Made by a program: the position numbers and the translations under genes. 64,000 bases of DNA from Candidatus Poribacteria bacterium (lineage in GTDB: Bacteria > Poribacteria > WGA-4E > PCPOR2b): positions 3,968,001 through 4,032,000 of the forward strand of contig OZ242351.1 of the NCBI GenBank assembly GCA_965208675.1. Direction: 5' to 3'. This document shows, piece by piece, positions 3,665 to 41,900 of this stretch. Each line of letters starts with the position of its first letter. Position 1 is the stretch's first letter. The notes under the pieces were generated by a model. It was not told where the DNA came from, did not search any database, and saw nothing but the letters and a program-made list of their open reading frames with translations.

Positions 3665-3688
3665 GGGGGCACGATGTACCCGTGCCCC
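3665..3688. terminator. Hairpin after the LamG cluster (terminator or REP-like)
   Basis: GGGGCACG-atgtacc-CGTGCCCC about 40 nt past the stop of 3727..4518. Confidence 0.5.
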
Positions 3689-3726
3689 TCAATTTCAAAA
3701 ATGCTGAAACACCTTAGAACTACAAC

Positions 3727-4518: not shown

Positions 4519-4541
4519 TAATTACAACCTCCATTACGGTT

Positions 4542-4581
4542 TTCCGTTCTCTTCAGAACTCGCGTTCTGAAGAGAACGGAA
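4542..4581 (-). promoter_or_regulatory. Perfect 18-bp-stem hairpin in the leader of LamG copy 1
   Basis: TTCCGTTCTCTTCAGAAC-tcgc-GTTCTGAAGAGAACGGAA just upstream of the GGAGG RBS; homologous hairpins precede copies 2 and 3. Confidence 0.7.
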
Positions 4582-4638
4582 CGGGTTTATGCTAACATCA
4601 ACAATGCGACGTTGCTGATATACCTACAAAGCTACAGC

Positions 4639-5430: not shown

Positions 5431-5566
5431 ATGTAAAACCCTCCATATCTGTTTTCCATTAACTTCAGAACGCTAGTTCTGACGATAACAGAGATTCTAC
5501 TTAAATCCAACAATGTTGAAACTTTATTCCTCGTAACAACTATCGCGGCCTACCTTGAGCCAAAAC

Positions 5567-8178: not shown

Positions 8179-9330
8179 TCAAGCCAAGATTTCCTTGATT
8201 GTGTCAATAACAGCTATGATGTCCTCTTCCGTCAATCCGGGATGCATCGGCAAACTAACGACACGCTTGAAGGCTGCCTCGGCGTGGGGAAAATCACCCT
8301 TCTGATACCCGTATCTTTGCTGGTAAAATGGAAAAAGATGTAGAGGGATGTAATGGACGCCGCATTCGATTTTAGCCTCGTGCATTGCATCAATGAATTC
8401 ATCACGGCAAATCTTCAATCTTGATGTACGCAACTGGATTATGTAAAGATGCCAAGCATGGCGGCTTGCTGCCTGTTCCTTGGGCGTAATGATATTAGGA
8501 AGTTCTCGAAGTGCCGAAGTATAAATTTCGGCGTACCGGCTGCGAAGTTCACGTTGCTTCTCAATCTTTAGGAGTTGGCACAATCCCATCGCCGCCTGAA
8601 TATCGGTCATATTATATTTATAACCTTGAGAGACAACTTCGTAATACCATGTGCGCTGTTCCCGCCGTCGCGCCCACGAATCTTTACTCATTCCGTGGTA
8701 GAAACTCCGCTTAATGGCTGTCGCGAATCGATCGCTGTTGGTGGTAATCATGCCGCCTTCGCCGGTTGCTAAATTTTTATTGGCGTAAAAACTAAAGGTT
8801 GACACATTACCAATGGATCCGATGCGATGCCCATTATAATCTGCCGGGATTGCATGCGCCGCGTCGTCAATAAGCACGAGGTCGTGTTTTCGGCAAATTT
8901 GCAGAAGCCTGTCCATGTCGCAGGGCAATCCTGCAATATGCACGGGAATAATTGCTTTCGTCTGCCGCGTGATAGACGCCTCAATTGCGCCAACATCAAT
9001 GTTCAACGTTTCCGGATCAATATCAACAAAGACGGGTTTCGCACGTGTATAGCCAATTGCTTCTGCCGTCGCGGTAAAGGTGTATGGCGTTGTAATCACT
9101 TCATCCCCCTCTCCGACGTCTGCTGCAATTAGCGAAAGGTGTAATCCAGCAGTGCAAGAACTCACCGCCAACGCGTGCTTTACACCGATGTATTCAGCAA
9201 ACCGCTGTTCAAACTCCGCGGTTTTTGGTCCCGTACTGATCCATTTGGAAGCAAGTACCTCGCTCACTGCTTCGATTTCGGCTTCATCAATCCATGGACG
9301 GCATAACGGTATGAATTTGTCCGATGCCAT
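8179..9330 (-). CDS. DegT/DnrJ/EryC1/StrS PLP aminotransferase
   Basis: VSSCTAGLHL, DDAAHA, FSFYANKNLATGEGG, GYKYNMTD. Confidence 0.92.
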   Translation of the reverse strand: MASDKFIPLCRPWIDEAEIEAVSEVLASKWISTGPKTAEFEQRFAEYIGVKHALAVSSCTAGLHLSLIAADVGEGDEVITTPYTFTATAEAIGYTRAKPVFVDIDPETLNIDVGAIEASITRQTKAIIPVHIAGLPCDMDRLLQICRKHDLVLIDDAAHAIPADYNGHRIGSIGNVSTFSFYANKNLATGEGGMITTNSDRFATAIKRSFYHGMSKDSWARRREQRTWYYEVVSQGYKYNMTDIQAAMGLCQLLKIEKQRELRSRYAEIYTSALRELPNIITPKEQAASRHAWHLYIIQLRTSRLKICRDEFIDAMHEAKIECGVHYIPLHLFPFYQQRYGYQKGDFPHAEAAFKRVVSLPMHPGLTEEDIIAVIDTIKEILA

Positions 9331-9414
9331 AGCGCTTCCTCTTAGGGAATAGTCAAATATCTGTGATTGCAGGGAATGGAAGGAGAGGAATGTACGTCTT
9401 CTGTTTATGCTGTT

Positions 9415-10128
9415 TCACGGTTGACCAATGCGCATTTGTAGGTGTTTTTTCAACTTTTCCAGCGCCTTTGCCCGGTGGCTAATCCGATTTTTAACATCCA
9501 CTCCCAACTCGGCGAAGGTTTTGTCATAACCAACCGGTACAAAAATGGGGTCATATCCAAAACCCTGCAGTCCACGCGGAGAACGAATAAGCCTTCCCTC
9601 ACAAACGCCGATGACAACGTGTGTCTGGCCGGTCGGTGCGGCGAGCGCGATTGCACATTTAAAACGCGCAGTTCGATGACTGTCGGCCACATCTTTAAGA
9701 GCGTCGAGCAGCTTTTTGATTCTTGCTGCATCGGACGCATATTCGCCGGCATATCGCGCGGTATGGATGCCGGGCGCACCGTGGAGCGCGTCTGCCTCCA
9801 GCCCCGAATCGTCGGCTAGAGCAAAATACCCCGTATGTTCAGCAAGCGCAGTTGCTTTCTTAACTGCATTTTCCTGATACGTTTCGCCATCCTCAACCAC
9901 TTCGGGCGTATCAGGTACATCATCGAGCGACAGAACATCAATCTCATTTTGATTGTTCAACCCAGTACGGCCACCCTGCGCTAACTGAGGTCGTTGTATC
10001 GCTCGATTTACATCTGAATCGAAAATCGACACTATTCCCGCCGCATCACGGGGAGAATTCATGTCGGTAAACATGGCTTGGAGTTCTCTTACTTTGCCGC
10101 GATTATGGGTCGCCAAGACTAACTTCAT
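9415..10128 (-). CDS. rdgB: RdgB/HAM1 non-canonical purine NTP pyrophosphatase
   Basis: [31 protein letters not shown]; overlaps the rph stop; carries an extra N-terminal loop. Confidence 0.92.
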
Positions 10129-10861
10129 TTAACTTTTCTACCATCAGCCGATTTTGTAACCGGATGAGTTTTTGAATGCCATCCGTAGCAAGATCCAACA
10201 TCTCATTCGATTCTTCCCTAGAGAAAGGCGTTTCCTCTGCTGTTCCTTGGATTTCGACAAATTTCCCTTTCCCGGTCATGACAATGTTCATATCAACTGC
10301 AGCTGTTGCGTCCTCTGTATAACGAAGATCCAGCATCGGCGTGCCATCGATAATTCCAACACTAATTGCGGCCACATTTTCACGGATTGGAAGTGACTTT
10401 ATCATTTTTCGATTTACCAGTTTCTGGCAAGCATCCCACAGCGCAATAAATGCGCCGGTAATTGAGGCGGTGCGCGTCCCGCCATCGGCTTGAATCACAT
10501 CGCAATCAACCCAGATTGTCCGCTCGCCAAGTGCGCGCAAATCTACAACTGCTCGTAAGGAGCGTCCAATCAGCCGTTGAATCTCATGAGTACGGCCGCC
10601 GACCGATCCGCGGGTGACCTCACGCTGGGAACGGTCGGACGTCGAGCGCGGCAGCATTGCATATTCTGCCGTGACCCAGCCTTTCCCCTGCATCTGCTGT
10701 TCGCGCATGAAGCGGGGTTGTCGTTCGTCCACCGACGCCGTGCAAATCACTTTTGTATCTCCAATCGAGATTAAGACCGATCCTTCCGGATGTTTAATGA
10801 AATCACGAGTTATGGTAACAGGACGCATTTGATTGGGGCTGCGCGCATCTACTCTTGTCAT
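10103..10861 (-). CDS. rph: Ribonuclease PH
   Basis: [45 protein letters not shown]. Confidence 0.97.
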
Positions 10862-11174
10862 TTAAATTCCTCTTTCAAACTGGGAATCTTCAATCAACAC
10901 TGCACAATAATTGTTGTAAGGGTGTTCAGTCTGTTGGCACTATTTCCTGTGCTTGCGTAACAAAAAGAAAATACGACGGTAGCAAACAAGGGTGGGATCA
11001 AACTGCAGTCGGTTGGCTGCGCGGTATTATGGACTTGTCCGCTTTCAAATTCGGTCAGCGCAGGACAGTTTAAGAACAACTGAACGGCAAAATTCAAGTT
11101 GTGTGATTGCAGGCTTCTGATGGTCTGGCGGTGCACGTTAACCCAATCCACTCAATTGTGAAATCATTATGATG

Positions 11175-13625
11175 CTATTTGAGCAATATCATCCGCCTCA
11201 ACGCGGTATAATCCCCGGCATCGAGTTGGTATGGATATACGCCGCTTGTGACTATTTCACCGTCTTCGTTGCGGCCGTCCCAATATACCGCCTTTTCTCG
11301 ACTGTCGTAACTGCCCGAAATCTGGTGTCCAATTTCCATCGTACGTACTACACGGCCGCTTTGGTCATAAATGGTTAGCGTGACGAAAGCGTCGTCCTCC
11401 AACTGGTACGGTATCCATGTTTCAGGGTTGAAAGGATTGGGATAATTTTGAAGCAAGGCGGTTCGCTTAATGTCGCCTAGCGTCGTCAGGCGGTGGCCCA
11501 ATGGTTCAACCGCAACACCTTCGGGAATGATGGCTGAAGGGAGTTCCCACAGGAATACTGTGCCGTCCGAACTCCCACTTGCGAGTGTATTGCCATCGCG
11601 ACTAAAAGCGATACTACGCACCGCGCCCGCATGCCCTGCAAGTATCGCTTTTTGCTCACCAGTTCTTGCGTCCCAAAGCCGCACTGTCGACTCGTCTGTG
11701 CTTGCAGTAGCGAGCGTGTTGCCGTCGGGACTGAACGCGACACTATAGACTGAAGTCGTATGCTTCGCGAGTTTGAGTTTCTGATTCCCAGTTCTTGCAT
11801 CCCAAAGCCGAACCGACTCGTTCCAACTACCCGTGGCGAGCGTGTTGCCGTCGGGGCTGAAGGCGATGCTATAAATTGCGGATGTGTGGTTCGTAAACGT
11901 GCGCTTGAACTCCCCAGTTTTCGCATCCCAAAGCCGCACGGTTCGGTCTGTACTCCCTGTGGCGAGCGTGTTGCCGTCGGGACTGAACGCGACGCCATAA
12001 ACTGCGGACTTGTGTGCATCGAGTGTGGCTATGTGTTCCCTGGTGTTGACGTCCCAAAGCCGCGCCGTACTCCCGGTACCCCCTGCAGCGAGCGTGTTGC
12101 CGTCGGGACTGAACACGACGCTATGGACCGAGCCGTAATCTTCCGTGAGCGTGGCTATGTCCTGCCCTGTCTTGACATCCCAAAGCCGTATAGAGCGGTC
12201 TGAGCTCGCTGTAGCCAGAGTGTTACCATCGGGGCTAAACGCAACAATATAGACCGCGTGCGTGTCTCCCGTGTATATGGTTTTCTGTTGCCCTGTCCTG
12301 ACATCCCACAGCTGCACGGAGCGGTCGGAACTCCCAGTGGCGAGCGTGTTACCATCGGGGCTGAACGTAACACTGTAGATTGGAGCAGTAAAACCCGTGA
12401 TTGAAGCTTTGTGATGGCCGGTTCTTGCATCCAACAGCCGCACAGAGCGGTCGGAACTCTTTGCGGCAAGCGTGTTGCCGTTTGGATTGAACCTAACTCT
12501 ATAGGACTGGCCGCTAAATCCCGTCAATGTTGCTATGTGCTGTCCTGTGTTTACATTCCACAGCCGCGCAGTATCGTCGTTACTTTCAGTTGCGAGGGTA
12601 TTGCCATCCGGACTGAATTCTACGCGGCGGACTGTATGTGCATGCCCTGTCAGAGTTCCTAAGTGCTGCCCTGTGTTTATATTCCACAGCCGTGCGGTAT
12701 CGTCCTTACTTGCCGTGGCTAGAGTGTTGCTATCGGGGCTGAACGCAACATCAAGGACTGAGTATGCATGCCCCGTGAGCGTTGCTAAGTGTTGACCCGT
12801 GTTTACGTTCCACAGCCGTGCAGTATCGTCGTCACTTCCGGTTGCGAGAGTGTTGCCATCGGGGCTGAACACCACGCTAAGGACTGGCTGTGCGTGCCCC
12901 GTGAGCGTTGCTAAGTGTTGTCCTGTGTTTACATTCCACAGCCGCACTGTAGGATCGGCACCTCTGGTAGCAAGGGTATTGCCATTGCGGTTGAACGTGA
13001 AATATGCCCGGCCGGTATGGCCCGCGAGAGTTGCTATGGGTTGTCTTGTGTTTACATTCCATAACCGCACTGTGTGATCGGAACTGCTAGTGACGAGGGA
13101 GTTCCCGTTGGGACTAAATGCAACAGACACTGCCTCGTTATGCCCTGTGAGAGTTGCAATGTGTTGTCCCGTTCTTGTGTCCCACAGCCGCGCGGTTTTG
13201 TCCCTGCTTCCGGTAGCCAGCGTATTGCCATCAGGGCTGAACGCGACATTGAAGACCCAACCCGTATGCCCCGCGAGAGTAGCAATGTGTTGCCCTGTGT
13301 TGGCATTCCACAACCTGGCCGTTTTGTCCCGACTCGCACTAGCGACAGTGTTGCCATCGGGACTAAACGCTGCACCAAAAACTCTGGATTTATGCCCAGC
13401 GAGTAGAGCGGTCTCTTGATACGTTGCCGTATCGTAGAGCCATATTCCGGGACCGCTAACAACCGCAAACCGGGTTCCATCCGGAGAATACGAGATATTA
13501 GAAATCCACCCTTTACCGAAGCGTGCTTTGGCACCCTCAGGCAAGTTCAATTGCTGGAAACCTTGGGCGGAGGCATTCGTTGAAAACAAGGTTATAGCGA
13601 TAAACAACGTCAAGGTGTTTTTCAT
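11175..13625 (-). CDS. Secreted WD40-repeat protein with C-terminal FlgD-Ig/T9SS-type-A-like domain
   Basis: Signal peptide, about 15 repeats of GH..VAFSPDGNTLATGSxDxTVRLW, then AVEPLGHRLTTLGDIK, LLQNYPNPFNPETWIPYQL and YWDGRN. Confidence 0.92.
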   Translation of the reverse strand: MKNTLTLFIAITLFSTNASAQGFQQLNLPEGAKARFGKGWISNISYSPDGTRFAVVSGPGIWLYDTATYQETALLAGHKSRVFGAAFSPDGNTVASASRDKTARLWNANTGQHIATLAGHTGWVFNVAFSPDGNTLATGSRDKTARLWDTRTGQHIATLTGHNEAVSVAFSPNGNSLVTSSSDHTVRLWNVNTRQPIATLAGHTGRAYFTFNRNGNTLATRGADPTVRLWNVNTGQHLATLTGHAQPVLSVVFSPDGNTLATGSDDDTARLWNVNTGQHLATLTGHAYSVLDVAFSPDSNTLATASKDDTARLWNINTGQHLGTLTGHAHTVRRVEFSPDGNTLATESNDDTARLWNVNTGQHIATLTGFSGQSYRVRFNPNGNTLAAKSSDRSVRLLDARTGHHKASITGFTAPIYSVTFSPDGNTLATGSSDRSVQLWDVRTGQQKTIYTGDTHAVYIVAFSPDGNTLATASSDRSIRLWDVKTGQDIATLTEDYGSVHSVVFSPDGNTLAAGGTGSTARLWDVNTREHIATLDAHKSAVYGVAFSPDGNTLATGSTDRTVRLWDAKTGEFKRTFTNHTSAIYSIAFSPDGNTLATGSWNESVRLWDARTGNQKLKLAKHTTSVYSVAFSPDGNTLATASTDESTVRLWDARTGEQKAILAGHAGAVRSIAFSRDGNTLASGSSDGTVFLWELPSAIIPEGVAVEPLGHRLTTLGDIKRTALLQNYPNPFNPETWIPYQLEDDAFVTLTIYDQSGRVVRTMEIGHQISGSYDSREKAVYWDGRNEDGEIVTSGVYPYQLDAGDYTALRRMILLK

Positions 13626-30536: not shown

Positions 30537-32870
30537 ATGCGCCAAAAATTTAACAGGTATTTCAATGTATTGACGCTCATTTTGCTAGCGTTCTTGCCGC
30601 CGCTCCTGTTTGCGCAAGGCGCAGGTCGTATCAACGGATATCTGCACGACAAAGTTTCCGGATCCCCATTGCCATACGCTAGAATCATACTGGGTGACAC
30701 TCAATTCACCGCCGTGTCCGATGTACACGGTTATTATGTGTTGAGCGGAATACCCACGGGTAACTACAAGCTAATCGTTTCAAAGGCGCGGTATGAGCGC
30801 GTCGAGAAGGAGATTGAAATTCAGCCGGACGGTGAGCTAAGGCTCGATATTGAGGTCGCGCCGGAAGCGGTTGAACTTGAGGAAGTGACGGTAACAGGGG
30901 AATTAACGCGGTTTAAAGAAGATGTAGAAATCAGCCGCACGCACATCAGTTCTGAAGACATAGTAAATACCCCGTCATTTGTTGAAGCCGATGTCTTTCG
31001 CACAATCCAACAACTCCCGAGTGTCACTTCACAGAGCGACTTCAGCTCCGCGCTCATCGTACGCGGCGGAAGGCCCGATGAAAACTTGGTTCTGGTGGAT
31101 GGCGCGGAGATTTATAACCCTTATCATCTTGGCGGGTTGTTCTCCACTTTCAATGCGGACACTATTGCCGATGCTAAATTCCTAGCGGGCGGCTATCCCG
31201 CAGAGTACCCCGGTAGACTGTCATCTATCTTGGACATCACCTCAAGAGAGGGGAAGCAGATTAAGGGAAAAGGAGAAGTCTCGCTCCTCAGCAGCAAAAT
31301 GATGCTGGAAGGGCCGTTCTATAAGGGGGCTTGGATAATCTCCGGTAGAAGAACCTACTTCGATCTCATTGCCGAACGGTTCAACCGCGCAAGAGGAGAG
31401 GATCAGGACTGGCGATACTACTTTTGGGACGGTCAAATCAAAATCTTTAGCGATCTGAATGCGGAAAACAGGTTGACCTTCTCGACCTTTGATGGACGTG
31501 ATGTTCTGACGTTTTTCTATACTGGCGAAGATGAGTATTCGGACGACACCACAGATTTCAACTGGAATTGGGGGAATAATGCACCCAGCTTGAAGTGGCG
31601 GTACGTTCCAAACGCGAAATTCTTCTCAGAACTTGTATTAACGCGCTCCAATTTCGATTTTGACGTGGATCTGGAAGTCACCGAAGTCGACATTGATGCT
31701 AGCGAAGACCAAACTGTCGCTATGGCGAACAACCAGATTCAGGACTACTCGATCTCGGAACGGTTAACTTGGTATCTTTCGCCTCAGCATACCCTTAAGA
31801 TGGGAGCCACGGCAAAAAAACTGAACATGGAATTTAATTTGCATGTGGATAATGTCAATTACTTCGACGTCGCGCAAGACGCCTACATCTTTAACGCCTT
31901 CATTCAAGATAAATGGAAACTCAACGACCTGCTCTCGCTTCAGTTCGGATTGCGCGGCACCAAATATGAGTTGCACGATAACATCTATCTCGATCCGCGT
32001 TTCGGATTCAAATACCTGTTATCGGACAATCTGACGTTCAAGGGAAGTTGGGGGCGGTTCAGTCAATTCCTTTTTACTGTGAACGACGAAGATCAGGTGC
32101 TGCAAATCGTCGATTTTTGGCTGCCGGTGCCTGAAGAATATGATGCCATAAAGAATCAACATTTCATTCTTGGATTTGAAAGATGGTTTAACCCGGGATT
32201 TACCGGATCAGTTGAGGCATATTATAAACCCTACAGCAACGTCCTCACTAGCAATCTCGGCAACGATCCCGGCCGTGCGTTTGATGATTTCATCTCGGGT
32301 ACAGGACGTGTTTGGGGTTTGGAACTTTTCATGAAGAAAACCGCCGGGAAATTTACGGGCTGGCTCGGCTATTCATATTCGAATGTTGAAAGGCGGTTCG
32401 ATTTCAACCAAGATGGAAGGGTCGAAAAGACAGAGAATCGTGCGTCGGAAATCTATCCACCCAAATATTCGAGGCCGCATTCGCTCAACTTCGTTACCAG
32501 TTACCAGATGAGCCGGAACAACCGGTTCTCACTCTCCTGGACCGTGTCAAGCGGTCAACCCTATACACCGGTCGTCGGCAAAGTCTATTATGGCGGCGAC
32601 TCGCCGGATAACCCCTATGGGGACGTTATTAGTATAGAAGGCAGAAAGAATTCATCGCGGTATCCACCCTACGTACGCGGAGATATTGCCTGGATCAGAG
32701 ACATCTCACCCTTCGGGGCGAACGGAAAATTCAAGCTGCAGGTCATCAATTTTACCAATCATTACAACTATCTACTCTATATTTGGGATCACGACCGTTC
32801 ACCGTCAAAAGTTACAGCAATTAGTATGTTTCCAATTATCCCGACATTCGGAATAGAATTTGAGTTCTAA
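30537..32870 (+). CDS. TonB-dependent receptor with N-terminal carboxypeptidase-regulatory-like domain
   Basis: Signal peptide, LEEVTVTG, plug VRGGRPDENLVLVDG..YNPYHLGG, terminal FEF. Confidence 0.9.
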   Translation: MRQKFNRYFNVLTLILLAFLPPLLFAQGAGRINGYLHDKVSGSPLPYARIILGDTQFTAVSDVHGYYVLSGIPTGNYKLIVSKARYERVEKEIEIQPDGELRLDIEVAPEAVELEEVTVTGELTRFKEDVEISRTHISSEDIVNTPSFVEADVFRTIQQLPSVTSQSDFSSALIVRGGRPDENLVLVDGAEIYNPYHLGGLFSTFNADTIADAKFLAGGYPAEYPGRLSSILDITSREGKQIKGKGEVSLLSSKMMLEGPFYKGAWIISGRRTYFDLIAERFNRARGEDQDWRYYFWDGQIKIFSDLNAENRLTFSTFDGRDVLTFFYTGEDEYSDDTTDFNWNWGNNAPSLKWRYVPNAKFFSELVLTRSNFDFDVDLEVTEVDIDASEDQTVAMANNQIQDYSISERLTWYLSPQHTLKMGATAKKLNMEFNLHVDNVNYFDVAQDAYIFNAFIQDKWKLNDLLSLQFGLRGTKYELHDNIYLDPRFGFKYLLSDNLTFKGSWGRFSQFLFTVNDEDQVLQIVDFWLPVPEEYDAIKNQHFILGFERWFNPGFTGSVEAYYKPYSNVLTSNLGNDPGRAFDDFISGTGRVWGLELFMKKTAGKFTGWLGYSYSNVERRFDFNQDGRVEKTENRASEIYPPKYSRPHSLNFVTSYQMSRNNRFSLSWTVSSGQPYTPVVGKVYYGGDSPDNPYGDVISIEGRKNSSRYPPYVRGDIAWIRDISPFGANGKFKLQVINFTNHYNYLLYIWDHDRSPSKVTAISMFPIIPTFGIEFEF

Positions 32871-33918
32871 GAGGAAAACCGTGCATATTCTAAGAGTCTG
32901 CCTCGCGGCGCTCTTGCTAGTTGCCGCGCTCTCATGCGAGCGGGAACTGGAGGTCGCCGATTTCAAAGATGATTTCGGAAATTACCAACCGGAACTAAAA
33001 GTTGAGGGTTTGCTTGACTATGATGCTCCGGAAAATTCCGTCATTCGGATTATCAGAACCGAGGCGATTGCGGAATCTGATGTGTTCGACGGAATTGACA
33101 ATGACGGAGACGGCGAAATTGACGAGTATGATGAGACGCTCCCGCTTATTCAGGATACAACGGCAACCGTCACTGTGACGAATTTAAATTCAGGGGAGGC
33201 ATACGAATTCCTGTACGTTACGCTGGCGGAGGAGTTGTTCTATCGGGAATTTCATGATGATTCCCCCCGCCTAGCTGGAAGAAGGGTTTATGGCGATGGC
33301 GGCTACAAACCAAAAAGTGCAGACGGTTTTCAGGTGGAACTCTTTGCCCAATATCGTTTGGAAATCTTTTCCGAAGCCTTCGACCAGACAATTACCGGCG
33401 TGACGACAGTCTATCCGCCGGTTGAATTCATCGACATTGATACCCTCTCAATCCTTAACGGCGGCCGCATAACGCTGGATAGAAATGTCGAAAAGACTAT
33501 CTACTGGCGTTCAGACTTGGAGGTGACTTCATACTTCGTTACCGTTGTCACCGTATTTGAATTGGACAACGTATTTCTTGAAGAAGAGCTATTCCTTGAG
33601 GACCCGCAACTCCATGAGGACGAACGGTTCGTCGAATCTGTCGATTCGTTCTCACTGTCCAGGGACAAAGATTTGACAGAACAGCACGGAGTCTCAATCG
33701 GCAAAGAGAGTTTCTTTGTGGGGCGGGAGGCTAATGCCGGCAAAACCTTGTCAATAATCGTCGACGGGCTAAGCCCGGAATATGGGCGTTACATCTTTTC
33801 GGCGTTGCCGCTGAACGACGCGCAGAGATCCAACCTTCGCGATCAAGACGGAAAACCCGTCATGGGCGCCTTCGGCGCAACCGCGTCAAACAGAATACAA
33901 GTGGAAATCGAAGAGTAA
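32860..33918 (+). CDS. Lipoprotein partner of the TBDR (DUF4249-like position)
   Basis: AALSC lipobox, acidic DGIDNDGDGEIDE metal-binding-like motif, terminal MGAFG; overlaps the TBDR stop. Confidence 0.7.
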   Translation: MSSKRKTVHILRVCLAALLLVAALSCERELEVADFKDDFGNYQPELKVEGLLDYDAPENSVIRIIRTEAIAESDVFDGIDNDGDGEIDEYDETLPLIQDTTATVTVTNLNSGEAYEFLYVTLAEELFYREFHDDSPRLAGRRVYGDGGYKPKSADGFQVELFAQYRLEIFSEAFDQTITGVTTVYPPVEFIDIDTLSILNGGRITLDRNVEKTIYWRSDLEVTSYFVTVVTVFELDNVFLEEELFLEDPQLHEDERFVESVDSFSLSRDKDLTEQHGVSIGKESFFVGREANAGKTLSIIVDGLSPEYGRYIFSALPLNDAQRSNLRDQDGKPVMGAFGATASNRIQVEIEE

Positions 33919-33926
33919 TACTTTTC

Positions 33927-34108
33927 GGTTCTTGTCGGTTGGGTAGAGCGATCAACCGACCGAATAGGGAGGGATCAACCGAGTGAATAACGAGGGCGAT
34001 AGTCTTATCCGAATGGTTTGCGATAAACCAAAAACTCCGCAATACCCAAAAGCGTTGGCTTTCGCTCCACCACATTACTTACCAAACAATTGATGCATAC
34101 GATCCAAT
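33927..34108 (+). repeat. GTAG-REP/REPIN-like element E1 (right end truncated)
   Basis: GTTCTTGTCGGTTGGGTAGAGCGATCAACCGACCGAAT...CCCAAAAGCGTTGGCTTTCGCT. Confidence 0.8.
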
Positions 34109-34555
34109 TTCTAAATACCCCCCTGATAAGGGGGGCTAGGGGGTTGCCACTCTTTTTTATTCGGATAGCGCTTTTCAGATTAAAGCTAGCCAATCCATAA
34201 GCCATCCAAGGGAATTGTCAGCCTCTACCCCATTGTAGGCGGTGAATCTTGCCCCGCAAAGTAGTAGGCACACTCCGTGTGCCGTAATCTTCTTTGAAAT
34301 CACACTACCCATACAATACACCATAACCGCGCAATCTAGCGATTGAATAGGGCGCAATAGTCGTCGGCTCCTGTATCCTGTAGGAGCGATCTCCGAATCG
34401 CGGCACTTATTTGAAACCGAGTTTTTTTCTTCAAAACTCGGTTTCTCCTAATCCTAATTGCAGTCCGAATCTCAGATTTAATAGATTCTAACGTGAATTC
34501 GGCCTGAACAATGTCTCAGACGAAATCGTAATCTATCCGACAGGAGTTGAATACT
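34108..34555 (+). repeat. About 450-bp upstream module (copy at 37797..38241; 3' part also at 35614..35798)
   Basis: Contains CCCCTGATAAGGGGG, GTAGGCACACTCCGTGTGCC, GTAGGAGCGATCTCCGAATCGCGG and the hairpin GAAACCGAGTTTT..AAAACTCGGTTTC. Confidence 0.85.
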
Positions 34556-35311
34556 ATGCCAATCAAAACTTTCCGATTCGTGATTGTTCTCTTGGGAACC
34601 GTCGCTGTGTTTGTGCGAATGTGTATCGCTGGTACGTGGATAGACGATTTCAGTGACCGAACCCTTCGAGATTGGGAAGGCGGTCTAATAAATGACGAGG
34701 TTAGCGCAGGTGTTGTTGGTGGACACTTCTATTATAGAGGAAAAAATGAACGAGCAGGTTATTATATGAAAAATTGGGCATTAGGGAAAATCCAAGATTT
34801 TTCGCTCGAGTTGAAGTTTATGGTTAGAGACCTCCGAGTCCCAGAGCGGTGTTCTTGGACTATTAATTATGACTCATTTAACGTAGAAACGCTGAATCGC
34901 AACGGGCTGATGGGCTTTTTGTGGTATCCCAATTTTGAGAAACCCAACATTATGGATGTTACAATTGATCGCTTCGAGCGGGAGGGGCACGCCTGGATTC
35001 CACAGACCGCTGCAATAGACAGCTTCGCATTCGAAGAAAAGGTCTGGTACACATTGCGGATTGAACGCGAAGGAAACCAATACACTTTTTCGATGGGCGA
35101 TTTGATTTTATTCGCAGAAGATGATACAGTGCAGATGGGTACGATTGAGCTGAGATTTTATGAACGGAATACCATCTGGTTGGATGATTTTACAGTGACC
35201 GGCCCCGATGTTCCGAATGGCGGACCTGGCTTTTTGGGAGTCAATCCATTGGCAGAACAATTAACGACGATGTGGGGAAAGCTGAAAGCACAGAACTGGC
35301 AGTTCTTGTAG
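34556..35311 (+). CDS. Secreted beta-sandwich (ConA/DUF1080-like) protein, paralog P1
   Basis: Signal peptide, GTWIDDFSD, WYTLRIEREGN, IWLDDFTVTGPDVP, C-terminal VNPLAEQLTTMWGKLK; AGGAG RBS. Confidence 0.8.
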   Translation: MPIKTFRFVIVLLGTVAVFVRMCIAGTWIDDFSDRTLRDWEGGLINDEVSAGVVGGHFYYRGKNERAGYYMKNWALGKIQDFSLELKFMVRDLRVPERCSWTINYDSFNVETLNRNGLMGFLWYPNFEKPNIMDVTIDRFEREGHAWIPQTAAIDSFAFEEKVWYTLRIEREGNQYTFSMGDLILFAEDDTVQMGTIELRFYERNTIWLDDFTVTGPDVPNGGPGFLGVNPLAEQLTTMWGKLKAQNWQFL

Positions 35312-35615
35312 GTTGGGTAGAGCGATCAACCGACCGAATAGGGAGGGATCAACTGAGTGAATAGCGAAGGCGATAGTCTTGACCGGCAACCAAAACGACT
35401 ACCAAACGAAAAATCCGTCCCATTTACGCGAAAACTCCGCCGTTTATCATGGATTAAATTATCATCGTATTGACGCTATCACTAGCCTATCCAAACGTCC
35501 CAAAAGCGTTGGGTTCGCTACACCTTAACAATTTCAGCACATATTCCAATACCGAAATCCATTGGACATTATTCGCGTCTTTCATTTAATCCGCTTAACC
35601 CAACCTACAAAAACT
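35301..35615. mobile_element. REPIN/MITE-like element E2
   Basis: Terminal IRs AGTTCTTGTAGGTTGGGTAGAGCG ... CGCTTAACCCAACCTACAAAAACT. Confidence 0.8.
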
Positions 35616-35798
35616 GTATCCTATAGGAGCGATCTCCGAATCGCGGTACTCATTTGAAACCTAGTTTTTTCTTGAAAACTCGGTTTCTCCTAATCCTAAT
35701 TGCAGTCCGATTCTCAGATTTAATAGATTCTAGCGTGAATTCAACCTGAACAATGACACAGACGAAATCGTAATCTTTTCGATAGGAGTTGAAATACT

Positions 35799-36542
35799 AT
35801 GCCAATCAAAACTTTCCGATTCATGGTTGTTCTCTTTGTAACCGTCGTTTTGTTTGGACGAATGTGTATCGCCGGTACGTGGATAGACGATTTCAGTGAC
35901 CCAACCCTTCGAGATTGGGAGGGCAGTCGAATAAATGTCGGGTTTAACACAGGTGTTGTTGATGGACACTTCTATTATAGAGGAACAAATCAACACGTTA
36001 ATGATATGGAGAATATTGCATTAGGGAAAATCCAAGATTTTTCGCTCGAGTTGAAATTTATGATTAGAAACCTCCGAGTTCCAGAGTATAGTTTTTGGAC
36101 TATTGAATATTCTTCATTTAACGAAGAAACGTGGAATTACGACGGGATTATGCAATTTTTGTGGTATCCCCAAGGGGAACCCAAAATTAACATTATGGAT
36201 GTTACAATTGATTGCTTCGAGCAGGAGGGGGACGCCTTTTTTCCACAGACCGCTGCAATAGACAGCTTTGCATTCGAAGAAAAGGTCTGGTACACGTTGA
36301 GGATTGCTCGCGAAGGAAACCAATACACTTTTTCGATGGGCGATGTTAGCTTATTCACAGAAGATGATACAGTGCCTATGGGGACGATTGAGTTGTCCTT
36401 TCATGGACGGAATACCATCTGGTTGGATGATTTTATCGTGACCGGCCCCGATGTGCCGAATGGCGGTCCAGGCTATTTGGGAGTCAATCCATTGGCAGAA
36501 CAATTAACGACGATGTGGGGAAGGCTCAAAGCACAGAACTGA
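35799..36542 (+). CDS. Secreted beta-sandwich protein, paralog P2
   Basis: Colinear with P1 and P3. Confidence 0.8.
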   Translation: MPIKTFRFMVVLFVTVVLFGRMCIAGTWIDDFSDPTLRDWEGSRINVGFNTGVVDGHFYYRGTNQHVNDMENIALGKIQDFSLELKFMIRNLRVPEYSFWTIEYSSFNEETWNYDGIMQFLWYPQGEPKINIMDVTIDCFEQEGDAFFPQTAAIDSFAFEEKVWYTLRIAREGNQYTFSMGDVSLFTEDDTVPMGTIELSFHGRNTIWLDDFIVTGPDVPNGGPGYLGVNPLAEQLTTMWGRLKAQN

Positions 36543-36651
36543 CCGAATCCGTTTTCCCGTCTTCCGAGCTTGCTATTACCCACAAGTCTCTGGAGTCAAA
36601 CGCCGTCTATGTTGGGGCTAAGAACGACTGTTCATTTCGGTATGGTGTAAA

Positions 36652-36706
36652 CTGTGGGAAGGACATCCCTGTCCCGATAATCAGGGCTAGGAAGCCCTTC
36701 CCACAG
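36652..36706. repeat. Inverted REP doublet of a second family
   Basis: CTGTGGGAAGGACATCCCTGTCCCGA-taa-TCAGGGCTAGGAAGCCCTTCCCACAG. Confidence 0.65.
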
Positions 36707-36715
36707 GAGCTTCAC

Positions 36716-37012
36716 AGTTCTTGTAGGTTGGGTTGAGCGGACTTCACCAAATGATGTACAATTTCACGTTTTGCTCTAGAAGTCTAACGACGTCCAAGAT
36801 CCGATGGACAGAGCGTAACCCAACGATCAACCGAGCGAATAGCGAAGGCGATAGTTTTATCCGAATGGCTTCCGATAAACCAAAAACTCCGCAATACCCA
36901 AAAGCGTTGGGTTCGCTACACCTTAACAATTTCAGCACATATTCCAATACCGAAATCCATTGGACATTTTTGCGTCTTACATTTAATCCGCTTAACTCAA
37001 CCTACAAAAACT
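36716..37012. mobile_element. REPIN/MITE-like element E3 (two complete REP arms)
   Basis: GTAGGTTGGGTTGAGCGGA-70nt-AGCGTAACCCAAC ... GTTGGGTTCGCT-69nt-TCCGCTTAACTCAACCTAC. Confidence 0.8.
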
Positions 37013-37013
37013 T

Positions 37014-37757
37014 ATGGAAAGTACATCAATGCCCACCCGTGTTTTAGTGAATGGAGCCTCAGGTAGAATGGGACAGGTTGCGATAGAGGCAGTTAATCTT
37101 GATGGCGGTCTGGAACTGGCGGGAACGGGACATCGAGGAGACGACCTATTATCCCTGATTGAGATAACTAATCCCGATGTTGTGTTGGACTTTACAACAG
37201 CAACGGTTGTCTTTGAAAACACCGCAACTATCATCAAAGCAGGCGTGCACCCCGTAATCGGAACAAGTGGCTTGTTGGAAGCCCAAGTTGAAAAGTTGGT
37301 TGCGTTGTGTGAACAGCAGCGACTAGGAGGCGTAATCGTGCCGAACTTTTCTATTTCTGCTGTGTTGATGATGAAGTTTGCAAAGCATGCGGCGCGTTAC
37401 TTTGACAGAGTTGAAATAATTGAGCGTCATCATGATGAGAAAAAAGATTCGCCTTCGGGCACAGCCATAAGAACCGCGGAGATGATGGCAGAGGATATTT
37501 CTTCACGAGATGATATTGAGGAGGAAGCAACGATTCCGGGGGTGAGAGGTGCGCTCTATCAGGGGATTTCAATACACTCGATACGGTTGCCCGGTCTGGT
37601 TGCGCATCAGGAGGTTCTTTTTGGCGGACCGGGCCAATTGCTAACCATAAAAAGTGATCTTATCAACCGAGATGCATTTAGTCCGGGGATTTGCCTTGCC
37701 TGCAAGGAAGTCGTAAACTTAAACGAATTGAAATGCGGTCTGGAACAATTTTTATAA
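37014..37757 (+). CDS. dapB: 4-hydroxy-tetrahydrodipicolinate reductase
   Basis: GASGRMG, DFT, VIGTSG, PNFS, EIIERHHDEKKDSPSGTA, HSIRLPG. Confidence 0.96.
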   Translation: MESTSMPTRVLVNGASGRMGQVAIEAVNLDGGLELAGTGHRGDDLLSLIEITNPDVVLDFTTATVVFENTATIIKAGVHPVIGTSGLLEAQVEKLVALCEQQRLGGVIVPNFSISAVLMMKFAKHAARYFDRVEIIERHHDEKKDSPSGTAIRTAEMMAEDISSRDDIEEEATIPGVRGALYQGISIHSIRLPGLVAHQEVLFGGPGQLLTIKSDLINRDAFSPGICLACKEVVNLNELKCGLEQFL

Positions 37758-37758
37758 G

Positions 37759-37797
37759 AGTTCTTATAGGTTGGGTAGAGCGATCAACCGACCGAAT
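37759..37797 (+). repeat. Element E4 (left arm only), starting 2 nt after the dapB stop
   Basis: AGTTCTTATAGGTTGGGTAGAGCGATCAACCGACCGAAT. Confidence 0.8.
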
Positions 37798-38241
37798 TTT
37801 TAAATTCCTCCCTGATAAGGGGGGCTAGGGGGGTTGCCACTCTTTTTTATTCGTTTATCGTACTTCAGAATGAAGTTCCCCGATCCATAAGCCGTCGAAG
37901 GTCATTGTCAGACGCTACCCCATTGTAAGAGGGGCATCTTCCCCCGCAAAGTAGTAGGCACACTCCGTGTGCCGTAATCTTCTGTGAAATCACACTACCC
38001 ATTCACCGCAACCGCGCAATCAAGCGATCGAAAAGGGCGCAATAGTTGTCGGCTCCTGTATCCTGTAGGAGCGATCTCCGAATCGCGGCACTTATTTGAA
38101 ACCGAGTTTTTTTCTTCAAAACTCGGTTTCTCCTAATCCTAATTGCATCCCGATTCTCGGATTTATTAGATTCTAACGTGAATTCAGCCTGAACAATGAC
38201 ACAGACGAAATCGTAACCCTTTAGACAGGAGTTGAAATACT
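37797..38241 (+). repeat. Second copy of the upstream module
   Basis: Colinear with 34108..34555. Confidence 0.85.
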
Positions 38242-38988
38242 ATGCCAATCAGAATATTCCGATTCATGATTGTTCTCTTCGTAACCGTCTTTGTGTTTGG
38301 ACGAATTTGTATCGCCGGGACGTGGATTGACGATTTCAGTGACCGAACCCTTAGAGATTGGGGGGGCGGTCGAAGAAATCACGAGTTTAGCACAGGTGTT
38401 GTTGGTGGACACTTCTATTATAGAGGGATAGTTGAACAAGCATTTTGTCATATGGAGAATAGGGGATTAGGGAAAATCCAAGACTTTTCGCTCCAGTTGA
38501 AGTTTATGGTTAGAAACCTCCGAGACCTACGGCAGGGTTTTTTGACTATTGATTATTCTTCATTTAACGAAGAAACGTGGAATACCGACGGGATTATGCA
38601 ATTTTCGTGGTATCCCCAAGGGGAACCCAAAATTAACATTATGGATGTTACAATTGATTGCTTCGAGCAGGAGGGGGACGCCTTTTTTCCACAGACCGCT
38701 GCAATAGACAGCTTTGCATTCGAAGAAAAGGTCTGGTACACGTTGAGGATTGCTCGCGAAGGAAACCAATACACTTTTTCGATGGGCGATGTTATATTAT
38801 TCGCAGAAGATGATTCAGTGTCGATGGGTACGATTGACCTGTTATTTTTTGGAAGGTGTACCGTCTGGTTGGATGATTTTACCGTGACCGGCCCCGATGT
38901 GCCGAATGGCGGGCCTGGCTTTTTGGGAGTCAATCCATTGGCAGAACAATTAACGACGATGTGGGGAAAGCTGAAAGCACGGAACTGA
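38242..38988 (+). CDS. Secreted beta-sandwich protein, paralog P3
   Basis: Colinear with P1 and P2. Confidence 0.8.
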   Translation: MPIRIFRFMIVLFVTVFVFGRICIAGTWIDDFSDRTLRDWGGGRRNHEFSTGVVGGHFYYRGIVEQAFCHMENRGLGKIQDFSLQLKFMVRNLRDLRQGFLTIDYSSFNEETWNTDGIMQFSWYPQGEPKINIMDVTIDCFEQEGDAFFPQTAAIDSFAFEEKVWYTLRIAREGNQYTFSMGDVILFAEDDSVSMGTIDLLFFGRCTVWLDDFTVTGPDVPNGGPGFLGVNPLAEQLTTMWGKLKARN

Positions 38989-38989
38989 C

Positions 38990-39234
38990 AGTTCTTGTAG
39001 GTTGGATAGAGCGATCAACCGACCGAATAGGGAGGGATCAACTGAGTGAATAACGAGGGCGATAGTCTTTTCTTGCCTTATCCGTATCGCTTCCGATAAA
39101 CCAAAAGCTCCGCGATACCCAAAAGCGTTGGGTTCGCTACACCTTAACAATTTCAGCACATATTCAAATACCGATATTCATTGGCCATTTTTCGCGTCTT
39201 TCATTTAATCCGCTTAACCCAACCTACAAAAACT
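38990..39234. mobile_element. REPIN/MITE-like element E5
   Basis: AGTTCTTGTAGGTTGGATAGAGCG ... CGCTTAACCCAACCTACAAAAACT. Confidence 0.8.
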
Positions 39235-39338
39235 CGGTGTCTCCTAACCAACGTCCGCCTTTCCCGCTCAATTTCCCACCTAAAGTCCAACCTAGACCTT
39301 TACCCAATTGTCGGTTCAACGGTTGCCCAAAAAGGCAC

Positions 39339-39367
39339 TTGATAATTGTGTTGCTTTAAGCTACAAT
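39339..39367 (+). promoter_or_regulatory. TA operon promoter with overlapping imperfect palindrome
   Basis: TTGATA-17 nt-TACAAT; ATTGT...ACAAT inverted repeat. Confidence 0.6.
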
Positions 39368-39377
39368 ATAGGAAATC

Positions 39378-39635
39378 ATGTATACGGTTCGCTATCGAGC
39401 AGGCGTAGCAAAGATGCTCCAGCGTATGCCGCGGAACGTCGCTAAAACCGTTGTACGTAAGATTGACCAACTTGCTGAGTCGCCTTATGCGCCGAACAAA
39501 AATGTAACGCGTTTAAAGGGTGAACGAGGATACCGGCTCAGAGTAGGTGATTGGCGTGTGTTATATGAGATTCGGGACAATAACCTCGTCATCGAAATTA
39601 TCAAAATCGGACCAAGAGGAGGCGTGTATCAATGA
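39378..39635 (+). CDS. RelE/ParE family toxin
   Basis: LKGERGYRLRVGDWRVLY..IGPRGGVY. Confidence 0.9.
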   Translation: MYTVRYRAGVAKMLQRMPRNVAKTVVRKIDQLAESPYAPNKNVTRLKGERGYRLRVGDWRVLYEIRDNNLVIEIIKIGPRGGVYQ

Positions 39636-39991
39636 ATGTTGAGACCGTCGAAAGACAAGGAGTGGAATATGTCCTTGTACCGAGAGTACAGTACAATCAG
39701 CTCTTAGAAGATGCGGAGATGCTGAGAGACATTAGAGAGTTCCGTGAAGCAAAAGACGCTGGCGAGGAAACCTACCCGAGTGAAGTGATTAACCGGCTGA
39801 TTCTAAATGAGGAGAGTCCAATACGGGTTTATCGAGACTATCGGGGACTCACGCAGCAGCAACTCGCTGATAAGTGCGGGATTCAGCGCGCATATTTAGC
39901 AGAGATTGAAACCGGGCGCAAGGCCGGTTCCATTAAAACTTTGAAGACAATCGCCGCAGCGCTTGGCGTTGAACTAACCTCCATCTCATGA
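39632..39991 (+). CDS. XRE-family HTH antitoxin
   Basis: RGLTQQQLADKCGIQRAYLAEIETG; ATGA overlap with the toxin. Confidence 0.9.
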   Translation: MNVETVERQGVEYVLVPRVQYNQLLEDAEMLRDIREFREAKDAGEETYPSEVINRLILNEESPIRVYRDYRGLTQQQLADKCGIQRAYLAEIETGRKAGSIKTLKTIAAALGVELTSIS

Positions 39992-40165
39992 GGTGGAAAG
40001 TTTAATCGCTCTGAATTGGGAAAAGGTCGGGGATTCTCTCGTCTTTGCCGATTGGATTGGGTCGATCAAAAAGCCGGTAAGCCTGTCGCAACTGTCCACC
40101 CTTCATATTCGAGGATACGCGAAAGATTAAGATGAATTCCTTCGCAGTTATAGAAAGGTGCAATA

Positions 40166-40402
40166 ATGAGCCAAATTGTCGTAAATCCAGAAATTCTGGG
40201 TGGGAAACCAATTATCGAAAGCACTCGCCTCAGTGTAGAGCATGTGTTAGGGTTACTCGCGAGCGGCATGTCCCACACAGAGATCTTTGAAGCCTTCCCA
40301 GAGTTGAATGAAGAAAACCTTCAATTGGTGCTCGCGTATGCATCTCGGGCACTCCGTGATGAGGTGATAATCGATCTCCCAATCACCCATGGCGGGGTTT
40401 GA
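40166..40402 (+). CDS. DUF433 antitoxin
   Basis: IVVNPEILGGKPIIESTRLSV..GMSHTEIFEAFPEL. Confidence 0.9.
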   Translation: MSQIVVNPEILGGKPIIESTRLSVEHVLGLLASGMSHTEIFEAFPELNEENLQLVLAYASRALRDEVIIDLPITHGGV

Positions 40403-40404
40403 CA

Positions 40405-40473
40405 ATGCTACTCCCGCTTGTGACTGACATTAACATCACAGTGCCCGTCAGACAGCGACTGAATATGGATTAA
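40405..40473 (+). pseudogene. Possible N-terminal remnant of a DUF5615 PIN-like toxin
   Basis: MLLPLVTDINITVPVRQRL* begins 2 nt after the DUF433 stop and resembles the MxxLxDENI start of DUF5615. Confidence 0.4.
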
Positions 40474-40488
40474 ACCTGATTGAGAGCA

Positions 40489-40848
40489 AGTTCTTGTAGG
40501 TTGGGTAGAGCGGATTTATCCAAATCGGCGTCATTAACAAGTTACCGCTCCAAATTTCGAATGGTGTTTGGTAGAAATTCACGTGAAGCGAAACCCAACT
40601 CTTTTGAAAACTCCGGCAACCAAAACGACGACCAAACGAAAAACCCGTCCCATTTACCCAATCACTCCGTCGTTTTTCATTTTTCCTGTCGTCATCGTAG
40701 TGACCTTATCCCTCGTCTCCCGGGGCGTCCCAAAAGCGTTGGGTTTCGCTAGACGTGAGTTAACACCAACCATGTTGCATTTCTGGCGGTAAGAACTATC
40801 GCCCTCCCTATTCGGTCGGTTGATCGCTCTACCCAACCTACAAAAACT
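40489..40848. mobile_element. REPIN/MITE-like element E6 (two complete REP arms)
   Basis: GTAGGTTGGGTAGAGCGGA-72nt-AGCGAAACCCAAC ... GTTGGGTTTCGCT-74nt-CGCTCTACCCAACCTACAAAAACT. Confidence 0.8.
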
Positions 40849-40866
40849 GTCCAAAATAGAGCGTGA

Positions 40867-40895
40867 TTGACACCAAATTGCTTCTGACGTATAAT
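40867..40895 (+). promoter_or_regulatory. Consensus sigma70 promoter
   Basis: TTGACA-17 nt-TATAAT. Confidence 0.8.
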
Positions 40896-40916
40896 TGGTG
40901 ACTCTACTGCGGCAAT

Positions 40917-41900
40917 ATGTGCAGCGCACTCACCAATTATGGGAAGCAGATTATGGAATCTTGTGGCGTTTCAAGCGGGGACCTTGAATCCGCGCTCACG
41001 CATCTTTCCGAACACGGATACACCGTCATAGAAGGCGTGCTTAGCGGCGATGAAATCCAGCACTACCGAAGTTTTGCGGCGGAACTCTTTGAACGAGAAC
41101 GCGAGCATCCTTTCGAGCCGGAAGACGGTCCGGCGTTGCCGGCAGATGCCGAGATTGAAGCTTATCTGAAGGAGAGTTACCTAATCAGCACGGCGGAACA
41201 GGCGCGGCTCATGCGGCGAATCCGCCATACACGCGCTCAAAACCGCGGCACGCCGTGGCCCGTCGCCCCCTCAGACGTGGTTAAGAATTTCCTTCACCTC
41301 CCGACCCTGTTCGATCATGACAAGTCGCAGCGTATCTGGAACTTGGTCAACAAAGCCCCGGATTTCGGAAAACTGATAGAACATCCGGCGGTGCTTTCGT
41401 TGGCGCGGGCGGTTCTTGGGGACGATTGCGTGCTCGCCGACTGCAGCGCCACCAGTATTGGAGCGCGTACCGGCGAAGGCGGGGCATGGCATGTGGATGT
41501 GCCGCTCGGTCAGTTGCCGGAACCGCTGCCGGACTTTCCGCTGACCATCCAGAACGCTTGGATGCTAGATGCGTTTACAACGCGCAACGGGGCAACCCAG
41601 GTTGTTCCCAAAAGCCATCGCACCCGCAGAAAGCCCGCATGGGGCGCGCAGCAGGAGGACGGGAAGATTCTGACGGGACCTGCCGGCTCGGTGGCAATCT
41701 GGTTGTCAAACACATGGCACCGATCGGGGCCCAACGCAACCGGCAATCCCCGCTGGGCTATCCTCTGCTATTACTCCCGTTCATGGATAAAGCCGTTTAC
41801 CGATTTTACATCGTGCCTAGACCCGGCAATCGCGAAAACCTTCTCACCTGGTTTGCGGTATCTTCTAGGATTTTCCGCCAACGCCCCCGTGCGAGGATAG
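40917..41900 (+). CDS. Phytanoyl-CoA dioxygenase (PhyH) family Fe/2OG enzyme
   Basis: HGYTVIEGVL, WHVD, NGATQVVPKSH, GPAGS, WHRSGPN; start 40917 or 40953. Confidence 0.9.
   Translation: MCSALTNYGKQIMESCGVSSGDLESALTHLSEHGYTVIEGVLSGDEIQHYRSFAAELFEREREHPFEPEDGPALPADAEIEAYLKESYLISTAEQARLMRRIRHTRAQNRGTPWPVAPSDVVKNFLHLPTLFDHDKSQRIWNLVNKAPDFGKLIEHPAVLSLARAVLGDDCVLADCSATSIGARTGEGGAWHVDVPLGQLPEPLPDFPLTIQNAWMLDAFTTRNGATQVVPKSHRTRRKPAWGAQQEDGKILTGPAGSVAIWLSNTWHRSGPNATGNPRWAILCYYSRSWIKPFTDFTSCLDPAIAKTFSPGLRYLLGFSANAPVRG

Follow-up and report, generated by a model that had tools for sequence, protein, structure and literature searches.

GTAG repetitive extragenic palindromic sequences (GTAG REPs) are described, in the sections of Di Nocera et al. 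(2013; PMC3733652) drawn upon here, as having stems of 5-13 bp and loops of 2-20 bp, as lying mostly downstream of open reading frames (ORFs), where their ends often give a TAG stop codon, as associating into head-to-head dimers with 20-100-bp spacers, and as forming large clusters in which dimers are reiterated along with flanking DNA. Paired and inverted REP units, termed REPINs, usually measure about 100 bp, are served by single-copy REP-associated tyrosine transposases (RAYTs) and decay after RAYT loss, according to the parts of a preprint used here (bioRxiv 10.1101/2021.07.10.451892). The present analysis concerns a 64-kb stretch of DNA (the window) from Candidatus Poribacteria bacterium, positions 3,968,001 to 4,032,000 of contig OZ242351.1 (assembly GCA_965208675.1), in which an inverted-repeat element recurs six times (E1 to E6) between the genes of a compact array. 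This element is an oversized REP/REPIN-type repeat found throughout the genus, its cognate RAYT surviving only in congeners. The array itself is probably a REP/REPIN cluster in a variable island, with the elements acting as passengers and recombination substrates rather than as sites of a dedicated cassette recombinase. Coordinates are positions in the window, which forms part of a single-contig 4.89-Mb chromosome; G000 denotes the genome under study and G001, G002 and G003 its complete congeners.

Nine matches to the 24-nt terminal repeat with up to three mismatches occur in the window, against none in 100 shuffles, six of them on the forward strand (33927, 35301, 36716, 37759, 38990 and 40489) and three on the reverse strand (35592, 39211 and 40825). 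A scan with the 11-nt core, allowing one mismatch, returned ten matches where 0.49 were expected, all within 33934-40841, and added the right arm of E3 at 36995. Both scans agree with a first-pass annotation of the same DNA, made from the letters alone, in finding six left arms and in confining the element to the array within the 64 kb. Together with four right arms these make E2, E3, E5 and E6 complete elements, E1 and E4 being left arms only; all six are oriented as the genes. The 11-nt core is exact at six of the ten sites, three others differing by one base inside GTAG and the last being mismatched further in. The order E1-P1-E2-P2-E3-dapB-E4-P3-E5-(ParE/XRE, DUF433)-E6, read at first pass with RelE in the place of ParE, matches the ORF map and the Pfam assignments: the array genes are three paralogues without a firm Pfam family (P1 to P3), dapB, a ParE-family toxin with its XRE-type partner and a DUF433 gene, bounded on the left by a DUF4249-like gene and on the right by a PhyH dioxygenase. 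E1, E2, E4 and E5 do lie, as had been remarked, within 10 nt of the upstream stop codon or overlap it, the distances being 8 nt for E1 and 1 nt for both E4 and E5, while the P1 frame enters E2 by three codons and stops on the element's own TAG; E3 and E6 follow their upstream stops by 173 and 86 nt respectively.

The element is by no means private to this locus. The first-pass annotation had proposed looking genome-wide for enrichment beside the P family and toxin-antitoxin genes; G000 holds about 229 element loci beside unrelated, ordinary genes, with 191 termini at up to three mismatches and 260 at up to four. Clean inverted pairs (n = 51) measure 216-527 nt, lengths near 275, 300 and 360 nt being the commonest, and no target-site duplication was found in the flanks of any of them. 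Conservation in these pairs is limited to about 26 nt per end, GTAG being near maximal information in the consensus of the 260 termini, and interior diversity is such that grouping the 51 elements at 70% identity over 80% of length yields 37 clusters. On a crude longest-ORF map, used for the genome-wide statistics in place of gene-finder output, 231 of the 260 termini lie outside ORFs, and termini occur in 151 of 3648 intergenic regions. Among the 155 termini facing a 3' end, 25 are within 15 nt of the stop codon, against 2 near a start among the 147 facing a 5' end, so that lying close to stop codons is typical of the family and not peculiar to this locus. The two densest clusters are the one described here (10 termini in 8 kb) and one at 718 kb (11 termini), whose genes encode a methyltransferase, HAD hydrolases, a NUDIX protein, a CAAX protease, an acetyl-CoA synthetase and Laminin_G_3 proteins. 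A C/T difference between left and right arms, consistent in the window, was tried as a polarity rule and rejected, the genome-wide split being 10 versus 9; the difference is local ancestry and not a rule. No published description of the family was found in the literature searched (with the 11-nt core, and with Poribacteria combined with repetitive extragenic palindromic), where the core matched unrelated primers or oligonucleotides, and an Rfam scan of 33500-41200 gave two weak, chance-level matches, neither of them inside an element.

The architecture of the repeat is REP-like. Each element end comprises about seven conserved bases and GTAG, followed by a short stem half whose partner half lies 40-95 nt further in, and the full element is two such units inverted, 245-360 nt long. 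The partner stem half lies 84-97 nt downstream of 188 among the 472 heads of G000, and for 182 of these the distance is 93-97 nt; in a second end type the loop is about 40 nt long, and REP loops overall measure 40-68 nt. At least four subfamilies (35, 33, 27 and 22 members) can be told apart among the long-loop units; they are equal in length, but between them the loops are no more alike than shuffles (median identity 0.55 versus 0.53). E2 and E5 each join a unit of the 40-nt-loop type, here with its loop module duplicated, to a long-loop unit, E6 presents the reverse order, and E3 carries loop subfamilies 2 on its left and 0 on its right. Long-loop units in the window are situated at 35608, 36723, 37005 and 39227. 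A scan of one genome per species with the 19-nt head found at least 117 stretches, and the head-bearing taxa among the matches listed include cyanobacteria, Desulfobacterota, Pseudomonas, Pseudoalteromonas, Moraxella, Methylococcaceae, Anaerolineaceae and Poribacteria. In most of the listed matches the complementary stem half lies about 10 nt or less past the head, which makes a compact GTAG hairpin, and among these an inverted second copy often follows 10-30 nt on, giving a REP doublet. This compact form may be one of the numbered cyanobacterial GTAG-REP families of Di Nocera et al. (PMC3733652), in the text of which its motif does not appear. Among the GTAG-REP traits given in the sections cited, all except loop size apply here: as in the GTAG-REP superfamily and in mosaics like the bacterial interspersed mosaic elements, there is an outer GTAG tag with head-to-head dimers; the repeats lie downstream of ORFs with an end supplying the TAG stop, here that of P1; and dimers are reiterated with flanking DNA in clusters, several REP families being interleaved in one intergenic region.

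The likeness extends to the transposase. In the REPIN-RAYT systems of Pseudomonas fluorescens, E. coli and Neisseria, to the extent of the accounts followed here (PMC3116915; bioRxiv 10.1101/2021.07.10.451892), as in the present family, the element is two inverted REP units in hundreds of extragenic copies without target duplication, the family flanks a RAYT gene (here in G001 and G003), and copies at orthologous sites, in this case in G002 at three of the five informative loci outside the array, point to vertical inheritance. The gene concerned, of 180 aa, scores 201.6 bits in G001 and 195.2 bits in G003 against the NCBIfam model REP_Tyr_transpos, whose cut-off is 80 bits, and in these 3.4-kb loci it is embedded in 10 and 12 core motifs respectively, on both sides and of both end types. 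G003 has one intact copy, and G001 one intact copy with fragments nearby. Neither G000 nor G002 holds a homologue of this cognate RAYT, the best matches there (26-34% identity) being other RAYTs, and the syntenic interval of the RAYT locus in G000 has kept element termini without a remnant of the gene. The RAYT was lost from G000 and its sister G002, and because of this loss the element copies in G000 are probably immobile relics. G000 does possess four Y1-transposase genes, one IS200-like and three RAYT-like, each flanked by its own, different repeat, and within 3 kb of the four no core motif was found except one chance-like site with one mismatch. The absence of a RAYT from the window, noted at first pass, thus widens to absence of the cognate RAYT from the whole genome, and the placing of the element with the GTAG REPs and REPINs is borne out by the GTAG tag, the inverted pairing, the dispersed extragenic copies without target duplication and the RAYT linkage in congeners. 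Comparison of element loci with 400 kb of G002 yielded, outside the array, five informative loci (three one-to-one, one expanded in G002 and one ambiguous), too few to judge insertion after RAYT loss.

Within the array, the P1 and P3 units are duplicates with junctions in common and 84-96% identity, each opening at an A-type left arm with another such arm following. A self-comparison of the window reproduces this duplication from left arm to left arm as the first reading had it, and likewise the derivation of E4 from E1 by an internal deletion, about 140 nt being gone with similar 8-mers at the junction. When E1 and E2 are set against E4 and E5, two of the six element copies are by-products of the duplicated element-P unit. 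The array also contains copies of two further RAYT-linked REP families, which flank RAYT-like genes at 2071908 and 3522752 of G000, so that several REP families are mixed in the intergenic DNA. The Y1d RAYT family is represented by a REP inside the mosaic at 34260-34287 and again at 37950-37977, and the k-mers flanking the Y1d gene occur in 16 copies genome-wide. Elsewhere in the chromosome P paralogues have no full flanking element: that at 4161887 is without an element within 2.5 kb, and a P pseudogene lies about 200 nt from a single terminus. The pseudogene (G000:C1:2939152-2941245) is split into three, an insert of about 1.3 kb interrupting it near residue 126. Upstream of each P gene of the array is a terminator-like hairpin repeat (34405-34445, 35650-35690 and 38095-38135); it recurs elsewhere in the genome, one 16-mer of the hairpin being present 17 times, and Logan contig depth peaks at these repeats in all four runs. 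The window also holds three tandem Laminin_G_3 (ConA-like) paralogues at 3727-6394, the first two with identical Pfam scores, and the core scan found no element between them, which shows that paralogue arrays form here without the element; a pair of similar kind is present in the 716-728 kb cluster.

The interval from the DUF4249-like gene to PhyH is variable, measuring 7.0 kb in G000, 9.8 kb in G002 and 11.1 kb in both G003 and G001, and holding different genes in each: three P genes and the extra dapB in G000; two P genes (one frameshifted), two DUF1670 genes and a CAAX protease in G002; one P gene, type I restriction-modification genes and a CAAX protease in G003; and, in G001, no P gene, type I restriction-modification genes and a CAAX protease. 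The ParE/XRE module occupies the same locus in all four congeners (degraded in G002), and the DUF433 gene of G000 is matched there in G002 and G003. In G001 the ParE/XRE module directly follows the DUF4249-like gene with no element nearby; being fixed at the locus and element-free in that genome, it indicates that the elements came to the genes rather than bringing them. Among the elements themselves, the E1 site of G002 has the left arm in common and a different, B-type interior, and the E3 and E6 orthologues in G002 are 84% identical and 87% identical over 356 nt, respectively. Indel breakpoints fall at element ends on both sides of dapB and on one side of a 3-kb G002-only block, which stops at the E6 left terminus, whereas a 2-kb DUF1670 indel in G002 is not broken at an element. 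The first-pass annotation had looked to such a comparison for cassette gain and loss at the repeats, and it receives a divided answer, the interval being variable with some breakpoints at element ends, yet the ParE/XRE module constant and the DUF1670 indel off the element.

The array dapB merits separate mention. It lies 1 nt from the right end of E3 and 1 nt from the left end of E4, shares 38% identity with the other dapB of G000, at 870711, and went unmatched at E <= 1e-30 across 150 other genomes of the phylum; it is strain-lineage specific, found only in G000 among 151 genomes. Its best relative among metagenome contigs has 56% identity, and it is present at about 94% identity in other sponge metagenome runs. 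Only one of 80 loci with dapB relatives carries the core motif, as a lone match with one mismatch.

Misassembly of the array, an alternative that the first-pass annotation had left standing, is unlikely. Short-read contigs of run X1, which cover 88% of the stretch and may come from the source sample of the assembly, span E3-right/dapB/E4-left (36939-37796) and E5-right to E6 (39205-40817) without differences, and the sister genome G002, assembled independently, shows a similar array in the same place. The repeats interrupt the contigs of four runs, and the many joints there, whose sides span at most 25 letters at 90% likeness, are uninformative on circles or deletions. Parts of the stretch are present in other sponge metagenome runs.

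These observations can be accommodated in a simple sequence of events. The elements were probably spread by a REP-associated tyrosine (HUH) transposase, and they sit in intergenic DNA, mostly just past stop codons, as the genome-wide placement shows. Genes come and go in the interval, a variable island by the four-genome comparison, and a unit of element, mosaic and P gene was duplicated in tandem, making E4 from E1 and E5 from E2. The simplest mechanism for that duplication would be unequal homologous recombination between element copies. Since homologous recombination between repeats suffices to give duplicated P units with common element junctions, a dedicated system is not needed. The bracketing of dapB, the end of the G002 block at E6 and the swapped interior at the E1 site all fit recombination among dispersed repeats.

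Several observations weigh against this interpretation. The loops of 40-68 nt are outside the 2-20 nt range given for GTAG REPs in the part of the source concerned with their structure (PMC3733652), and single half-units folded as single-stranded DNA do no better than shuffles (z -0.46 to -1.43, one +0.78). What supports the description as a long-loop REP hairpin is therefore motif homology and constant spacing, not stability. Relative to the REPIN-RAYT systems as described in the accounts cited above (PMC3116915; bioRxiv 10.1101/2021.07.10.451892), the element is long (245-360 nt against about 100 nt), its stem halves are 40-95 nt apart, its long-loop units fall into at least four subfamilies of equal length whose loops are unrelated, and G000 lacks the cognate RAYT, yet termini there are about twice those of the RAYT-bearing congeners. 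In a four-genome count at up to two mismatches, the RAYT-less G000 and G002 have 312 and 324 termini against 155 and 173 in the RAYT-bearing G001 and G003, a reversed-pattern control giving 0-3 per strand and genome; simple decay following RAYT loss would predict the reverse. G002 has tandem runs of termini at 216-388-nt spacing, and tandem amplification may contribute to the excess. The subfamilies of constant loop length, together with the excess of termini, hint at a constraint or a mobiliser. Finally, with starts so rarely approached by termini (2 of 147), chance is not a comfortable explanation for a dapB bracketed within 1 nt on both sides. REPIN ends might be preferred joints for gene gain and loss in this lineage, at which segments between elements, such as the foreign dapB, are captured or exchanged, although we consider this highly improbable, as we do its enzymatic form, in which RAYT-type single-strand cleavage and rejoining would have acted at the conserved ends while a RAYT was still present.

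Among the alternatives to a cluster of passenger REPINs, a function in cis survives best. The elements could serve as 3'-UTR hairpins that stabilise or terminate transcripts or damp translation near the stop codon, a role that would be compatible with REPIN origin and that we regard as a possible, if unlikely, account of the array. As RNA, whole elements are much more stable than shuffles (z -4.2 to -8.8; Table 1), all six are oriented with the genes, termini are enriched next to stops (25 of 155 against 2 of 147) and the ends are kept while the interiors drift. Roles of REPs in mRNA stability and termination are noted in the sections of Di Nocera et al. cited above (PMC3733652). Weighed against these points are an intrinsic-terminator-like site in none of the elements in a scan of the window, the lack of an Rfam family match and two end variants without preferred orientation to transcription genome-wide. 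Stop-codon-proximal REPs reportedly affect translation in E. coli.

Integron cassette arrays consist of attC-bounded cassettes served by an IntI integrase, and the locus recalls them in having an imperfect inverted repeat after each gene, codirectional genes and content that varies between relatives. The first-pass annotation suggested an integron-like array built from REPINs; on such a reading a site-specific enzyme would use the element as the recombination site at which to capture, copy and shuffle whole gene cassettes. In favour of such a reading, the element bounds every gene or gene group over 7 kb, the gene content of the interval varies among the four congeners, element ends lie no more than 1 nt from the lineage-specific dapB on either side, the G002-only block stops at the E6 left terminus and the P units recur from left arm to left arm. 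The enzyme itself, however, is missing: no recombinase or transposase was recognized among 50 crude window ORFs or four further short ORFs checked, so that the adjacent tyrosine recombinase of an integron is not found here; the genome's four Phage_integrase matches lie at 1.12, 1.78, 2.43 and 3.08 Mb, the nearest about 0.88 Mb from a window that starts at 3.97 Mb, and the cognate RAYT is gone from G000. Nor does the element behave as a cassette boundary, being dispersed over the chromosome beside unrelated genes instead of confined to an array, while the genes here keep their own upstream regions and promoter-like sites, and searches with dapB and the P genes found no array cassette at a second location. 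The dapB relatives and the P paralogue at 4161887 are without flanking elements as set out above, the toxin module is fixed in all four congeners with DUF433 in three, the DUF1670 indel is broken elsewhere than at an element, and the Laminin_G_3 tandem formed with no element in between. Taken together, these findings leave the integron-like reading highly improbable.

Descent from a DDE-type insertion sequence, as a miniature inverted-repeat transposable element moved in trans by its transposase, would account for conserved terminal inverted repeats of 24-26 nt, a size of 216-527 nt and many copies with variable interiors, but with target-site duplication in 0 of 51 pairs, a transposase enclosed by 0 of 12 long-spaced terminus pairs (0.6-8 kb; eight ORFs Pfam-scanned, three read by eye), and GTAG-tagged ends that flank a RAYT in congeners, this is the least credible of the explanations considered.

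Table 1. Positions in the window of the repeat elements, array genes and flanking genes (the dot marks a feature without assigned strand).
Feature	Position	Strand	Evidence or remark
DUF4249-like gene, conserved left flank	32860..33918	+	Weak Pfam match; orthologues 72-91% aa identity in G001-G003
E1, truncated: A-type left end, without right arm	33927..34061	+	Repeat scan
Upstream mosaic of other repeat families before P1; copied before P3	34062..34546	+	
P1, secreted-looking paralogue, without strong Pfam match	34547..35311	+	75-77% aa identity to P2 and P3
E2, complete: A-type left, B-type (long-loop REP) right	35301..35615	+	RNA fold z -4.19
P2 paralogue	35799..36542	+	Weak 3keto-disac_hyd Pfam match, E 0.0011
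Inverted pair of another REP family, one flanking the genome's Y1b RAYT	36652..36706	.	Repeat comparison
E3, complete doublet of two long-loop REP units	36716..37012	+	RNA fold z -5.44
Second, short dapB (4-hydroxy-tetrahydrodipicolinate reductase)	37014..37757	+	Pfam; NCBIfam TIGR00036, 196 bits
E4, A-type left arm only	37759..37797	+	E1 minus about 140 nt internally
P3 paralogue	38242..38988	+	With E4 and mosaic, duplicates the E1-mosaic-P1 unit
E5, complete; duplicate of E2 with shorter middle	38990..39234	+	96% and 93% duplicate segments
ParE-family toxin	39378-39635	+	Pfam
XRE-type HTH antitoxin	39632-39991	+	Pfam
DUF433 gene	40166-40402	+	Pfam
E6, complete, opposite module order: B-type left, A-type right	40489..40848	+	RNA fold z -8.81
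PhyH-family dioxygenase, conserved right flank	40917..41900	+	Pfam; orthologues 86-91%

Two promoter-like sites accompany these genes. A perfect sigma-70 consensus (TTGACA, 17 nt, TATAAT; 12/12) is found at 40867-40895, 19 nt past E6 and 22 nt before the PhyH start, and a 10/12 site at 39339-39367, upstream of the ParE gene. In the congeners, the two adjacent DUF1670 genes of G002 are at 2679-4381 of locus L025 and the HsdM and HsdS genes of G001 at 9087-12001 of locus L027, with an HsdM homologue in G003. UPF0175 and HTH_37 genes lie beyond PhyH. With DUF1670, HsdM/HsdS, ParE/XRE, UPF0175 and HTH_37 all represented, the locus resembles an island of defence genes and addiction modules.

What appeared to be a cassette system thus becomes a documented case of REP/REPIN pile-up and co-duplication in a variable chromosome island, in the setting of an uncultivated sponge symbiont. 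The genus offers a natural comparison of REPIN populations after transposase loss, two complete genomes having the cognate RAYT and two lacking it. Theory, in the parts of the preprint cited above (10.1101/2021.07.10.451892), predicts decay in RAYT-less genomes, and here these have more termini, not fewer. The oversized units, with loops of 40-68 nt and doublets of 245-360 nt, extend the size range of GTAG REPs. Were the ends of the elements indeed preferred joints for gene gain and loss, REPIN clusters would constitute a crude platform for cassette exchange.

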